Shown: positions 11,452 through 54,309, counted from the stretch's first letter. The stretch: 64,000 bases of DNA from Candidatus Giovannonibacteria bacterium (GCA_016176295.1 JACOXN010000009.1:3798-67797); one strand, 5' to 3'. Notes: a model not told the origin generated them from the letters alone. Numbers and translations are program-made.

Positions 11452-11473
11452 ACTTAGCAATCCGATTGCCAAG
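11452..11473 (+). repeat. 22-nt REP-like imperfect palindrome, 5' copy flanking RAYT-1
   Basis: ACTTAGCAATCCGATTGCCAAG, with stem CTTAGCAATC/GATTGCCAAG (one A-C mismatch). It starts 4 nt after the smc stop. Confidence 0.8.
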
Positions 11474-11503
11474 TACGGGTTTCAGCCATATAATACTGAC
11501 ATT

Positions 11504-12151
11504 ATGAGAAAATTCAGATTTGTGAACGGAGAGTATTATCATATTTACAATCGGGGTGTTGAAAAGAGGATAATTTTTTCTGATCAATATGATTTTGATA
11601 GATTTTTGCAGTGTTTGAACGAGTTCAATTCGGTGAAACCTATTGGTAGTATTTTTGAGAATTCCTTTAAAAAAGGCCAACTTAGTAATAAGATTACCAA
11701 GTTGGTGGATGTTGTATGCTATTGTCTCAATCCTAATCACTATCATATAATTCTGCGCCAACGCGTTGATAATGGTATTAGTGAATTTATGCGAAGGATT
11801 GGAACCGGATTTACGCAACATTTTAATATTAAATATCGAAGAACTGGAGTACTTTTTCAAGGCAAGTTCAAAGCAAAGCACGTAGACTCAAACGAGTATT
11901 TAACGCATCTCAGTGCGTATGTGAATTTGAATAACAAAGTACATAAAATAAAGGGTGATATGGAATTCAGATCGAGTTGGAAAGAATATCTTTCGCCGTC
12001 CGATAAAACTCACAAATTATGTAGTTCCAGCCTTATTCATGATCAATTTGATACTCTAGACGAGTATAAAAACTTTTCTTTAAATTCTTTGGGCAATATT
12101 TTAAAACGAAAACAGCTATTCAAAGAAATGGAAGAACTGCTATTTGATTAA
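11504..12151 (+). CDS. REP-associated tyrosine transposase (RAYT; IS200/IS605 Y1 HUH family), copy 1
   Basis: YHIYNRGVEKR, HUH motif NPNHYHIIL, GFTQHFNIKYRRTGVLFQGKFKAKHV and catalytic Tyr in LSAYVNLN. I set the start at ATG 11504 (MRKFRF). Confidence 0.8.
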   Translation: MRKFRFVNGEYYHIYNRGVEKRIIFSDQYDFDRFLQCLNEFNSVKPIGSIFENSFKKGQLSNKITKLVDVVCYCLNPNHYHIILRQRVDNGISEFMRRIGTGFTQHFNIKYRRTGVLFQGKFKAKHVDSNEYLTHLSAYVNLNNKVHKIKGDMEFRSSWKEYLSPSDKTHKLCSSSLIHDQFDTLDEYKNFSLNSLGNILKRKQLFKEMEELLFD

Positions 12152-12172
12152 CTTAGCAATCCGATTGCCAAG
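12151..12172 (+). repeat. 22-nt REP-like imperfect palindrome, 3' copy flanking RAYT-1
   Basis: Identical 22-mer ACTTAGCAATCCGATTGCCAAG in the same orientation. It overlaps the RAYT-1 stop codon. Confidence 0.8.
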
Positions 12173-26137: not shown

Positions 26138-26158
26138 GATAGAAGTCCGACTTCTCTC
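26138..26158. repeat. REP family 2 palindrome, copy a (3' flank of RAYT-2)
   Basis: GATAGAAGTCCGACTTCTCTC, 8 nt from the RAYT-2 stop. Confidence 0.8.
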
Positions 26159-26165
26159 ACTTCTC

Positions 26166-26858
26166 TTATTCTGCTTTTTTCTCCAATGCAATATCATCTA
26201 AATCTTCAATATTTCCGTCTTTAAGCCACTGAATAATGTTGTTTTTATATTGTTGTGGAGTTTCAAAGACCTCTTTGAGTAATTTATTATCAATAATCTC
26301 AAAAAAATTATTTTTTCCAATATAATATGGATAACTAGACCAGCGATAGGATTCTAAAAAACTTACGGTCTGATTTAAATTCTTGACATTAGCTTGTCTC
26401 ATTTTAGGTAAGTTTATTCCAATTGGGTTTAGATGAATGTAATGTGGTAAATACATAAAATATTTATCATCCTTGATTAACGCGCATTTATATTTTCCTT
26501 GAAATAATGGGCCGACTCTTTTGTATCTGAGATTAAAATAATTTGTGTAACCGGTTCCTAATTTGCGGATAAACTCTGTTATTCCATTTTCGGCTATCTG
26601 TTTTACCATCAGGTGGTAATGATTTGGCATGAGAACAAAGGCAAGAATTTCCACCAACTTCTCCCTATCTTTTGATAGAAGTCCGACTTCTCTCACGTTA
26701 CTTTTACGGTTGCCGTTTATAAAAGGGTATGTATCATTAAAGACATATAAACCGCGCATAAATCTTTCCCGATCTAAATCATCAAGAAAAATTTCTCTCT
26801 TTTCTACTCCTCGGTTAAATATATGATAAATTTCGTCAATTGCCGGTTTTACTCGCAT
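26166..26858 (-). CDS. REP-associated tyrosine transposase (RAYT), copy 2
   Basis: YHIFNRGVEKR, HUH motif MPNHYHLMV, GTGYTNYFNLRYKRVGPLFQGKYK and Tyr in LPHYIHLNP. I set the start at ATG 26858 (MRVKPAIDE), because the upstream ORF extension is just the translated REP. Confidence 0.8.
   Translation of the reverse strand: MRVKPAIDEIYHIFNRGVEKREIFLDDLDRERFMRGLYVFNDTYPFINGNRKSNVREVGLLSKDREKLVEILAFVLMPNHYHLMVKQIAENGITEFIRKLGTGYTNYFNLRYKRVGPLFQGKYKCALIKDDKYFMYLPHYIHLNPIGINLPKMRQANVKNLNQTVSFLESYRWSSYPYYIGKNNFFEIIDNKLLKEVFETPQQYKNNIIQWLKDGNIEDLDDIALEKKAE
26674..26694. repeat. REP family 2 palindrome, copy b, inside the RAYT-2 coding sequence
   Basis: GATAGAAGTCCGACTTCTCTC, identical to copy a. It is translated on the minus strand as ..VREVGLLSK.. 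Confidence 0.8.
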
Positions 26859-26871
26859 GGTAGGAGTATAT

Positions 26872-26892
26872 GATAGAAGTCGGACTTCTATC
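26872..26892. repeat. REP family 2 palindrome, copy c (5' flank of RAYT-2, between RAYT-2 and pilD)
   Basis: GATAGAAGTCGGACTTCTATC, part of the perfect 23-nt palindrome TGATAGAAGTC-G-GACTTCTATCA. Confidence 0.8.
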
Positions 26893-26935
26893 AAGAGCTT
26901 TAATTCATGCTAGAGTAATGAGGTATAATATATTT

Positions 26936-27715
26936 ATGCAAATACTTTTTGGATTTATTGTTTTTATATTCGGCACCATTATCGGGAGTTTTTTGAACGT
27001 TGTGCTTTTGAGAAAAAATACCGGCAAATCGCTGGTTTTTGGCGGTTCGAAATGCTTTTCCTGCGGAAAGAACTTAAGTGCCAGAGAGTTGATTCCCATT
27101 TTGAGTTTTCTCCGGCAAAGGGGGAAGTGTTTTCATTGCGGCTCTAAAATATCATGGCAGTACCCGCTGGTTGAGTTTTTGACGGGCTTAATCGCAATCT
27201 CTGTTTATTCCCAGGTCGGTCTCGGTTTTTCCATGGCTTTTTACTTCGTCGCATTTGCCGCGCTCTTTTTGGTGTCGGCTTATGATTTCAAGCACAAGAT
27301 AATCGATTCGCAGCTTTTATATATTTTTGGAGCTTTTGCAGTTGTCGTTTTTTTTCTCCGCGGAAATTATTTAAGCGACATTATTTCCTCCGCCTCCATC
27401 GCCTTGTTTTTCTATCTTCTCTGGTTTTTTTCCGGTGGGAAATGGATGGGGAGGGGAGATACCGATGTTTCTTTTTTTATTTCGCTTTTTCTTGGTTTTC
27501 CCTTGAATTTGTCATCAATAATTCTCAGTTTTTGGATAGGAGGCATTTGGGCGATAATTCTTCTTTTACTTAGCCAGATTGAAAGGCGTTTTATTTCGCG
27601 CCGATTCCATTTAAAAAGCGAAATTCCGCTGGCGCCATTTATGGCGCTTGCCGCGTTCTTCTCCTGGTTTTTTTCATCACCGCTCTTGTTTTTATTGGAC
27701 AAATTATTTTTTTAG
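26936..27715 (+). CDS. pilD: prepilin peptidase PilD (A24 family)
   Basis: GSFLNVVLLR, Cys pairs CFSCGKNL...CFHCGSKI, and the aspartyl-protease region GRGDTDV. ATG 26936 is preceded by TATAAT-N7. Confidence 0.85.
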   Translation: MQILFGFIVFIFGTIIGSFLNVVLLRKNTGKSLVFGGSKCFSCGKNLSARELIPILSFLRQRGKCFHCGSKISWQYPLVEFLTGLIAISVYSQVGLGFSMAFYFVAFAALFLVSAYDFKHKIIDSQLLYIFGAFAVVVFFLRGNYLSDIISSASIALFFYLLWFFSGGKWMGRGDTDVSFFISLFLGFPLNLSSIILSFWIGGIWAIILLLLSQIERRFISRRFHLKSEIPLAPFMALAAFFSWFFSSPLLFLLDKLFF

Positions 27716-52627: not shown

Positions 52628-53197
52628 ATGTCAAGTGTTAAAAAACCCTCATATTTCAACGTTTCAACACCCATTTTGGCGGAAGAACTTCTGGGAAAAT
52701 TTCTCGTCCGCAGCTTGGAAAATAAAACTATAGCGCTAATGATAACCGAAGTCGAGGCATATGAAGGCTTCGCGGATAAAGCATCGCACGCGTCGCGCGG
52801 GCGCACATTGAGGAATGAGCCTATGTTTGGCGAGGCGGGGCGTTGGTATGTATATTTTACCTATGGCATGCATTGGATGCTGAATATCGTGGCCGGGCCG
52901 AAAGACTATCCCGCGGCGGTTTTGATTCGTGGCGTCAGAAGTCCGACTTCTCTCAAACTTGAGAGAAGTCGGACTTCTGACGTTATAAATGGTCCGGCCA
53001 AACTCACTAAATTTTTAAAAATAGACGGAAAACTGAACGGAAAGCTTGCAGCCATTGAGTCTGGTTTATGGATAGAAGACAGAGGAGTGAAAATAAAACC
53101 AATCGAAATAAAAAAAAGCCCGCGGGTAGGAGTTTCCTACGCGGGTCCGTATTGGGCTCGGCGAAATTGGAGGTTTTATCTTAAAGACAGCGTGTAA
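52628..53197 (+). CDS. mpg: DNA-3-methyladenine glycosylase (Mpg/AAG family)
   Basis: LLGKFLVR, ITEVEAYEGFADKASHASRGRTLRNEPMFGEAGRWYVYFTYGMHWMLNIV, AAVLIRG and NGPAKLTKFL. Confidence 0.85.
   Translation: MSSVKKPSYFNVSTPILAEELLGKFLVRSLENKTIALMITEVEAYEGFADKASHASRGRTLRNEPMFGEAGRWYVYFTYGMHWMLNIVAGPKDYPAAVLIRGVRSPTSLKLERSRTSDVINGPAKLTKFLKIDGKLNGKLAAIESGLWIEDRGVKIKPIEIKKSPRVGVSYAGPYWARRNWRFYLKDSV
52934..52981. repeat. REP family 2 inverted doublet (perfect 23-bp arms, 2-nt spacer) inside the mpg CDS, in frame
   Basis: GTCAGAAGTCCGACTTCTCTCAA-AC-TTGAGAGAAGTCGGACTTCTGAC. It is 48 nt (16 codons) and is translated VRSPTSLKLERSRTSD. Confidence 0.85.
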
Positions 53198-54309
53198 TTT
53201 TCATATCGCGGATCTTTGGTGACTTCTTTCGTTCTGCCGAGCCATTTGGAAATTGAGACCTTGCTGTTCTCTTCGGTGACCTCTATCTCCAGAATCTGCA
53301 GACCATGCAGCCTTTTGGGCTCCAGGAACGTATCCAGCTCGAAGTACTGGTTGTCCGACAAAAAACAGGTTCGGATTTTTTTGAGGGTGTCGTGGATCGG
53401 GCTTCGCGTTTTCAACAAACTGTAAAATTTTGACGAACTTATCCGTTCCTCCCGTTCTTCGCGTGCGCCTTCCGTGATATGCGTTTTGAAAGTCTGGTAG
53501 TAAACCGAATCGTTTCCTTGAGTTCTTTTCCTTGCCCTGCTTTCCCAGCCGTCATGCTGCGCCATGTAAGCTTGCTCTATCACAAAATGTTCACAGTGTA
53601 CGGGGAGAGAGGTATGGTCGACTTGGGACCGCAAAAGGAATTTCTTTTCTATCTCGAGTACAACCGGCACGCCTATTATCCGCTGTATCTCCGCGAGCAT
53701 TCTTCGCATCTTACCCCTGAACAAAGTGGAGTTGTCTATCACTCTTAAGTGCGGGTGCCCAACCCAGATTTTTTTCGAACGGTCATCTGCCGCCCTGGCT
53801 TCGTCGAGTGTCTTTTCAAAACGCGCTTCGTTATTCTCCAGGGTGTAGAATTTTTCTTTGCCGTAAGCGGCGGTTACCAGGAAGATACCGCCGCCGTAAC
53901 GCTTTTCTCTCAGGTCGGATTTTTTGAGTCCTCTTAATTTCAGGTACCGCGCCTGTTCTTCCTCCGTCATGTAAGCGAATGCGCTGATGCAGGCGCGGTC
54001 CGGGATCAGGATTTTCTTCCGCCCTTTCTTTATGTTTAGGAGCGGCTTGAATACCCGGTCTTCGAGATAAAATTGCATGTCGATCATTGCGCATTCGAAG
54101 TTAAAGAAGGCTTCACGTCCGTATTTCTCGATGATCTCCGGGGGTTTCATGCCGAAATGATTTATCAGCAAAGTGGCGGCTTCCGGGGTCGTAGCTACCG
54201 CGATACCGGAGTTGGTCAGTTTTTCAAAAGCATAATTCAAACCGGTCGTTTTGCCGCTGCAGGGCCCCCCGTCCAATGGCACGACGATTATGTCATCCTT
54301 TTCTTTCAT
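53176..54309 (-). CDS. P-loop NTPase (AAA_28/nucleoside-kinase-like) fused to a C-terminal CYTH (triphosphate tunnel) domain
   Basis: Walker A LDGGPCSGKTTG. CYTH motifs in order: EIEKKFLL, SRARKR, EEREERI, KIRTCF, FELDTF and ILEIEV. The 3' end overlaps the mpg 3' end by 22 nt (convergent). Confidence 0.75.
   Translation of the reverse strand: MKEKDDIIVVPLDGGPCSGKTTGLNYAFEKLTNSGIAVATTPEAATLLINHFGMKPPEIIEKYGREAFFNFECAMIDMQFYLEDRVFKPLLNIKKGRKKILIPDRACISAFAYMTEEEQARYLKLRGLKKSDLREKRYGGGIFLVTAAYGKEKFYTLENNEARFEKTLDEARAADDRSKKIWVGHPHLRVIDNSTLFRGKMRRMLAEIQRIIGVPVVLEIEKKFLLRSQVDHTSLPVHCEHFVIEQAYMAQHDGWESRARKRTQGNDSVYYQTFKTHITEGAREEREERISSSKFYSLLKTRSPIHDTLKKIRTCFLSDNQYFELDTFLEPKRLHGLQILEIEVTEENSKVSISKWLGRTKEVTKDPRYENYTLSLR

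Follow-up and report, generated by a model that had tools for sequence, protein, structure and literature searches.

The presence of a long, perfect palindrome inside the coding sequence of a DNA repair enzyme raises the question of where the repeat came from, whether it was added to the protein or took the place of part of it, and how the gene has stayed open. The gene, mpg (52628-53197, plus strand), encodes a DNA-3-methyladenine glycosylase of the AAG family with 189 residues, and lies in a 64-kb stretch of DNA from a Candidatus Giovannonibacteria bacterium, an ultra-small member of the CPR; the stretch was analysed over its whole length and is referred to below as the window. Positions 52933-52982 form a perfect palindrome of 24+2+24 nucleotides, in which the arms (52933-52956 and 52959-52982) are 100% complementary and are separated by the spacer AC; the repeat finder returned no second long perfect palindrome in the window. 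An earlier note on this DNA had described a perfect 48-nt inverted repeat at 52934-52981, GTCAGAAGTCCGACTTCTCTCAA-AC-TTGAGAGAAGTCGGACTTCTGAC. This description is exact, and the repeat continues for one further base on each side, which gives the 24-nt arms. Folded as RNA, the 86-nt palindrome region forms a single helix of 27 pairs at -56.4 kcal/mol (z = -9.7), a stability reached by 0 of 200 shuffled sequences.

The predicted translation across the palindrome reads AAVLIRG-VRSPTSLKLERSRTSD-VI-NGPAKL. The earlier note had counted all 16 codons of the 48-nt repeat as part of the element; the frame is open across all of them, but the outer codons GTC and GAC (2 of the 16) are probably native to the gene. 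Two other roles for the hairpin were considered and rejected. An intragenic terminator was discarded as the hairpin is not followed by a T-run and was not flagged by the terminator scan, and programmed frameshifting was discarded as no slippery heptamer was found upstream when the sequence was read by eye.

The arms of the palindrome have relatives elsewhere in the window. At up to three mismatches an arm has four matches, compared with none in 100 shuffled sequences, and a 15-nt core, AGAAGTCSGACTTCT, occurs five times (at 26141, 26677, 26875, 52937 and 52964) where 0.11 occurrences are expected. The three copies outside mpg belong to REP units, all listed on the plus strand, that are arranged around a RAYT-like transposase gene on the minus strand (RAYT-2, 26166-26858). 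One unit, GATAGAAGTCCGACTTCTCTCAC with a central C (26138-26160), was recognised by its core match just 3' of the RAYT-2 stop codon, and another, likewise recognised by its core, lies in the opposite orientation with a central G, 11-35 nt upstream of the start codon (26872-26894). These two units flank the gene in inverted orientation, a layout that is repeated in eight homologous loci. The remaining unit (26674-26696) matches the others, is conserved and covarying, and on the minus strand encodes REVGLLS (residues 55-62). The three REP units that the earlier note had placed around this gene, 26 kb from mpg, are therefore all present, but one of them lies inside the transposase ORF. With five units in 64 kb, the family is low-copy in the DNA examined.

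Each mpg arm has 19 of 19 bases in common with the units at 26138 and 26674, covering the core and its inner flank, AGAAGTCCGACTTCTCTCA, which assigns the mpg doublet to this genome's own RAYT-2-linked REP family. The doublet has the layout of a REPIN, with two inverted units that form one long hairpin. A search for tags at the foot of the hairpins showed TGAT or TGAG before the stem of the REPs flanking RAYT-2, without GTAG. The mpg doublet does have CGTC...GACG at its ends, but these bases may well be native codons for Gly-Val and Asp-Val. Membership of the CGTC-REP superfamily was not adopted, as the stem and loop geometry does not fit and the RAYT-flanking copies lack CGTC.

RAYT-2, a Y1 (HUH) transposase of 230 aa, is the presumed cognate enzyme of this family. 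The protein is identical to an annotated 230-aa NCBI protein and matches PF01797 with an E value of 1.8e-7. Against NF047646 (REP_Tyr_transpos) it scores 38.2 bits, under the cutoff of 80, and for this reason we did not adopt the label of a bona fide RAYT and call it RAYT-like. The motifs NHYHL and YIHLNP are invariant in the alignment of its homologues, in which the HUH motif and the catalytic Tyr were assigned by inspection, and the protein is, as judged by sequence comparison, a distant, CPR-specific branch. The gene lies between a prepilin peptidase gene and pilin/PilC genes, and the same order is found in L100, L101, L102 and L107; this fixed position indicates vertical inheritance, as described for RAYTs (PMC5581495). 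The longest ORF of the neighbouring prepilin peptidase begins inside a REP (MIEVGLLS..., 26870-26935), with the real start probably at an ATG near 26936 (MQILFGF...), and the called prepilin peptidase gene of L100 likewise starts within a REP. In both cases the start codon seems to have been placed too far upstream because the REPs are stop-free.

Could the palindrome nevertheless be an assembly artefact, or a chance structure unrelated to the REP family? Assemblers can create palindromes at inverted repeats, and the data consist of short-read MAG data only. Logan assemblies of three separate runs (SRR12113430, SRR12113424 and SRR12113420) are exact substrings of the window, however, and together with the NCBI MAG they give one identical sequence, which argues that the palindrome is not the product of a single assembly; an artefact, against which the earlier note had warned, is contradicted by four independent assemblies. 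Chance is opposed by the 19 of 19 match to the REPs at the RAYT gene and by the absence of any match in the 100 shuffles. We regard both possibilities as extremely improbable.

Whether the doublet was inserted into mpg or replaced part of it can be judged from its homologues, an alignment that the earlier note had proposed. Exactly four residues (VEGI, TDKV and similar) separate PAAVLIRG from NGPARLT in 42 of 70 metagenomic Mpg loci, and four residues lie between the same two motifs in 52 of the 117 closest protein clusters that have the motif. With the insert masked, neighbour joining places the window's protein nearest to P0005, P0019, P0012 and P0017, whose loops read VKGI, VEGI or VGNI. 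Four-residue loops in the family and in the nearest neighbours imply that the window's sequence was derived by insertion. Mpg proteins from outside the CPR carry at this position a canonical segment of 23-24 residues, 'LEPLEGLE.M...R', the DNA of which is not unusually structured (z ~0). The earlier note had described the region as a variable surface linker; it is more exactly a segment of 23-24 aa in canonical Mpg/AAG that has been cut to 4 aa in the CPR clade and re-expanded by palindromes repeatedly. On this comparison of homologues, the mpg doublet is an insertion into a four-residue loop and not a replacement.

The extent of the insertion is less sharply defined. Deleting AGAAGT...ACTTCT (52937-52978, plus strand) leaves GGC GTC GAC GTT ATA AAT, that is G-VDVI-N, with a normal four-residue loop; the junction without the 42-nt insert would read GGCGTC|GACGTTATA. 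The net gain is therefore probably 42 nt, or 14 codons (RSPTSLKLERSRTS), between the native GTC (Val103) and GAC (Asp), with the boundaries placed by parsimony from the four-residue base state. The nearest homologue that is not identical shares just 66% of its residues, too few for it to serve as a true empty-site allele, and for the 42-nt boundary parsimony is the sole argument. The flanking CGTC and GACG lengthen the palindrome, a match expected by chance at only ~0.4% if they are native, and by this extension the element could instead measure 48-50 nt and have displaced two codons. The 42-nt element is, as read from the sequence, free of stop codons in two of its three frames, and both open frames are in use (RSPTS/RSRTS and EVGL/EVRL). 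A sequence that is stop-free in two frames and has a length that is a multiple of three leaves mpg open.

The host gene is full-length and intact. Mpg matches PF02245 over profile positions 3-180 of 181 (E 1.5e-53; 181 bits against a cutoff of 27) and TIGR00567 with 158.6 bits against a cutoff of 116.35, and an annotated NCBI protein from a Candidatus Giovannonibacteria MAG has the identical sequence. In an alignment of 35 homologues it keeps all 36 of 36 invariant columns. Residues E43, Y45, H54, Y79, N86 and R101 are invariant and align with E125, Y127, H136, Y162, N169 and R182 of human AAG, which are, according to the AAG literature, the catalytic Glu (E125), the base-pocket residues (Y127/H136), the intercalating Y162, and N169 and R182. 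The AlphaFold2 model has a mean pLDDT of 92 and a pTM of 0.89, and only residues 109-116, within the insert, fall below 50; in Foldseek comparisons it matches the human AAG-DNA structures 3qi5, 1bnk and 1ewn (E ~1e-16, TM-score 0.80-0.85). The modelled fold is confidently AAG-like apart from the insert, which forms a loop of low confidence. Its product carries a net positive charge and a Ser/Thr-rich stretch of 14 residues, and it starts two residues past R101, the equivalent of R182. The 3' end of mpg overlaps that of a convergent gene of the AAA_28 family (53176-54309, minus strand) by 22 nt (53176-53197).

These observations bear on the possibility that the insertion has inactivated mpg or soon will, leaving a decaying pseudogene. 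CPR genomes undergo reduction, which would suit such a fate, as would a hairpin of -56 kcal/mol within the coding sequence and an insert only two residues from a DNA-contacting arginine. Against decay, the ORF is full-length with all invariant residues present, and the frame is unbroken, as the earlier note had said; the hairpin lacks the T-run of a terminator, and dozens of intact orthologues carry inserts at the same site. We thus consider inactivation quite unlikely.

The event is an in-frame insertion of a REPIN into a permissive loop of an intact mpg, where the element is most likely carried as a tolerated passenger. On this reading a REP doublet from the genome's own RAYT-associated family was inserted into the tight loop predicted to join the strand ending in L99-I100-R101-G102-V103 to the NGPAKL segment, and the simplest such event would be one that added 14 codons (42 nt) after GTC and before GAC. 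The product would be an Mpg with an extra basic, Ser/Thr-rich, probably disordered surface loop of 14 residues, and the insert may persist because the position tolerates extra residues, the canonical segment having 23-24 residues there and the CPR proteins four. We infer mobilisation by the RAYT-like enzyme, read-through translation and the near-neutrality of the insert. As such, the mpg insertion offers a clear and well-controlled case in which a selfish palindrome has come to form part of a housekeeping enzyme.

The same loop has been expanded many times over. In 65 of the 117 closest Mpg protein clusters, 3-39 extra residues follow LIRG at the position of the window's insertion, and in the 70-locus alignment this post-LIRG loop is by far the main site of indels, with at least three inserted residues in 28 sequences and a maximum of 47. 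DNA was available for 23 distinct CPR-type inserts, and for 10 of these no other window of equal size in the same gene is as stable, where ~0.4 would be expected by chance; among canonical segments this holds for 0 of 5. Several Mpg inserts have shuffle z-scores of -4 to -12. Mpg has three further loops with smaller palindromes, which follow residues 30, 151 and 153-157 in the window's numbering. In both L044 and L054 the Mpg gene has small palindromic inserts at three separate places (the main site, after ~30 and after ~151/157).

The inserts fall into several sequence families. The GAAGTCGGACTTC-type is found in L056 (peptide EVGL) and in L044 and L099 (AGAAGTTCRACTTTT), the GACGTCCGACGTC-type in L054 and, by peptide, in P0095 and P0076, and the TTCCAATGTTCTGCAGAACATTGGAA-type in L019, with 'SN[IV]L[QKE]N' peptides in seven further clusters. 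The TTCCAATGTTCTGCAGAACATTGGAA REP family encodes 'SN[IV]L[QKE]N[IVFM][GR]' and recurs in at least seven Mpg clusters that are just 63-66% identical to one another. L045 carries CCTGCGCAGG, L046 a MITE-like insert of 150 nt, and L025 a family of the form ATTCCCGCG...CGCGGGAAT with a second palindrome nested in its loop; at 3307-3384 of L025 the REP reads GTCATTCCCGCG...GCGGGAATCCAGA, with a further copy at ~325. The nested palindrome suggests that REP loops may themselves be targets of insertion. Additional copies of the insert families were found in the same locus (near 1200 in L045 and near 325 in L025) and as an intergenic, terminator-like copy in another organism (near 260 in L058). The 12-mer search for such copies over all loci returned mostly chance matches, and only those for L045, L025, L019/L058, L044/L103 and L054/L003 are informative. 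One enzyme loop filled independently by palindromes of several families, in more than half of the close homologues, is a natural experiment on the way in which mobile hairpins generate protein-length variation in very gene-dense genomes, and it implies that indel 'hypervariable loops' of CPR proteins may be repeat insertions.

What has made this loop a hot spot? Our preferred explanation is a tolerance filter, in which the canonical segment, when lost, left behind a surface turn that tolerates extra residues. A live alternative is that the transposition machinery chooses the site, either by recognising a short palindromic target such as CGTC|GACG, similar to the REP's own centre (GTC-S-GAC), or by overwriting a resident REP; this would be compatible with the insertion itself. 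The CGTC/GACG flanks that extend the palindrome are in keeping with target choice, as are the GTC-GAR codons common in base-state loops, the related REP cores found at this one site in orthologues only 62-64% identical (the window, L099, L044 and L056) and the concerted evolution of REP copies at the RAYT locus, described below. Beyond these frequent codons, no convincing common target motif was found at insert junctions or in base-state loops. The different inserts share no flanking motif, unrelated REP families occupy the same loop, and the smaller palindromes at three other loop positions are what a tolerance filter predicts. We regard target choice as possible, though the less probable cause.

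The high frequency of expansion might also mean that the insert is kept because it is useful. The basic peptide could stand in for the lost Arg/Lys-rich segment by R101 and contribute to DNA binding, or the hairpin, as mRNA or DNA, could tune mpg expression through ribosome pausing or RNase III. Such exaptation would fit the re-expansion of the loop in over half of the close CPR Mpg homologues, the positive charge of the insert two residues past the R182 equivalent, the very stable RNA hairpin with a palindrome still perfect at 24 of 24 positions, and the persistence of singlet and doublet versions across orthologues that are 77-78% identical (L044 vs P0024, L054 vs P0095). A recent insertion explains the perfect palindrome equally well, however, and the inserts have neither sequence nor length (3-47 aa) nor charge in common. 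Many lineages, the window's nearest neighbours included, do well with four residues, and the insert has no confident AF2 structure. Exaptation seems unlikely to us on this evidence, and we retain the reading of a tolerated passenger in a permissive loop.

The REP unit inside the RAYT-2 ORF is of interest in its own right. In nine genomes (the window and L100-L107) the pattern GAAGTY-S-RACTTC lies at nt ~160-200 of the RAYT-like ORF; most of these loci also have a REP 11-40 nt before the start (the distance is ~90-120 nt in L104), and another REP lies just past the stop. Across 20 RAYT-2 homologues (50-69% identical) the residues E-V-x-L (E-V-[G/R/Q]-L) are invariant, and the codon of the next residue always begins with C. 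The outer stem of the internal REP varies among genomes yet matches the flanking copies of its own genome: the internal unit equals the downstream copy at 23 of 23 positions in the window and the upstream copy at 23 of 23 in L107. Identity or near-identity to the genome's own flanking copies indicates concerted evolution. In the alignment of nine sequences, 89.9% of cells of the internal hairpin pair, compared with 29-46% when the partner is slid, and 6 of 11 pairs show double compensatory changes, with a covariation score reached by none of 500 shuffles. In the AF2 model of RAYT-2 the REP-encoded segment falls after helix 1 and before the HUH strand, where confidence is lower. We found no description of a RAYT-like gene with a REP in its own ORF in the literature examined. 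A covarying REP hairpin in a RAYT-like ORF offers a concrete handle on self-recognition and regulation in domesticated transposases.

The window holds a second RAYT-like gene (11486-12151, plus strand), 36% identical to RAYT-2, with its own REP family, CTTAGCAATCCGATTGCCAAG, at both flanks (11453-11473 and 12152-12172). A related 29-nt hairpin, CCAACTTAGTAATAAGATTACCAAGTTGG, is found at the equivalent internal position (11677-11705, residues 64-74).

A bolder reading, which we consider improbable, is that in Paceibacteria-type CPR the REPs are coding-compatible and tied to a vertically inherited RAYT-like enzyme, that the ORF-internal hairpin is functional and serves as an autoregulatory site or as a master copy kept identical to the flanks by the enzyme, and that the same machinery repeatedly writes or overwrites REPs at a handful of 'landing pads', among them the Mpg loop. 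If this were true, the hot spot would reflect enzyme-driven, site-directed remodelling of a protein loop and not just a tolerance filter.

REPs of this family also enter other genes. A pattern scan of public genome contigs with AGAAGTCSGACTTCTMTCA returned two loci of a related Giovannonibacteria MAG and 13 matches at about the estimated chance level, and the same REP core was found in eight further CPR loci. Giovannonibacteria RIFCSPHIGHO2_02_FULL_44_11 is the sole public genome in which we found the same REP. Its TsaE gene contains an in-frame REP, 'IMIEVGLLSLKK', just before the P-loop (L013, 3848-3870), and its C39-like peptidase gene contains two in-frame REPs of different types, 'AIERSPTSLNEG' and 'SSLRRPTSKW' (L003, 3357-3379 and 3519-3540). 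In L100 a REP lies in the gene for a DZR_2 protein (19759). When loci fetched for mpg are excluded, the copies away from transposase loci lie within ORFs at the window's mpg, L003, L013 and position 19759 of L100, and one is intergenic (L103, 12604).

In-frame palindromes of this general kind have been known for some time. Rickettsia palindromic elements (RPEs) are similarly found in frame in ORFs of probably functional proteins in a reduced genome, a likeness that concerns behaviour alone. RPE-1 elements are longer than the mpg doublet, at about 100-150 bp. RPEs carry a CGTC tag, and no dedicated transposase is known for them (PMC3733652). The in-frame RPEs (Ogata et al. 2000) were cited as an earlier case by Di Nocera, De Gregorio & Rocco (2013; BMC Genomics 14:522, PMC3733652), who reported REPs lying in frame within genes of known proteins, both of the RAYT-associated GTAG type and of the CGTC type. 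Dimers encoding 20-30 residues make up over half of these intragenic REPs, many of their hosts are genes of DNA synthesis or repair, and the authors argued that the inserts sit in loops or linkers and thought them neutral. The earlier note had named the Rickettsia elements as the precedent and set the mpg doublet apart by its association with a RAYT; the novelty implied was overstated, as RAYT-associated GTAG REPs in frame had already been described in that study.

Compared with these REP-decorated proteins, the mpg doublet is alike in being an in-frame REP hairpin, a dimer, in a DNA-repair gene and at a loop position, and the existence of in-frame REP dimers makes it ordinary in kind. It differs in coming from the CPR/Patescibacteria and not from Proteobacteria, Opitutus or Rickettsia, in having a different REP core without a clear GTAG or CGTC tag, and in encoding 14-16 aa where the earlier dimers encode 20-30 aa. 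No glycosylase is among the hosts in the main text of PMC3733652, and that study does not describe many REP families in the same loop of one orthologue family, as seen here.

The REPIN/RAYT systems (Bertels & Rainey 2011; Bertels et al. 2017, PMC5581495) consist of two inverted REPs that form one long hairpin and a single-copy, vertically inherited Y1 transposase flanked by cognate REPs, and the window has corresponding parts in its REP doublet, flanking REPs and syntenic Y1 transposase, single-copy in its type. Classical REPINs are described as extragenic and often present in tens to hundreds of copies, while here the copies are few and, away from the transposase locus, mostly in genes; moreover, RAYT-2 is only distantly related to curated RAYTs and carries a REP hairpin in its own ORF. 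In the open-access literature subset we found no report of REP/RAYT systems in CPR/Patescibacteria, which is not proof of absence, and intragenic or in-gene REPs gave no matches when the text of one survey of Y1 transposases was searched. Set beside these known systems, what is new here is the lineage (CPR), the gene that hosts the insert and the repeated use of a single loop within a family of orthologues, and the mpg event sits within a wider, apparently undescribed pattern in CPR genomes.
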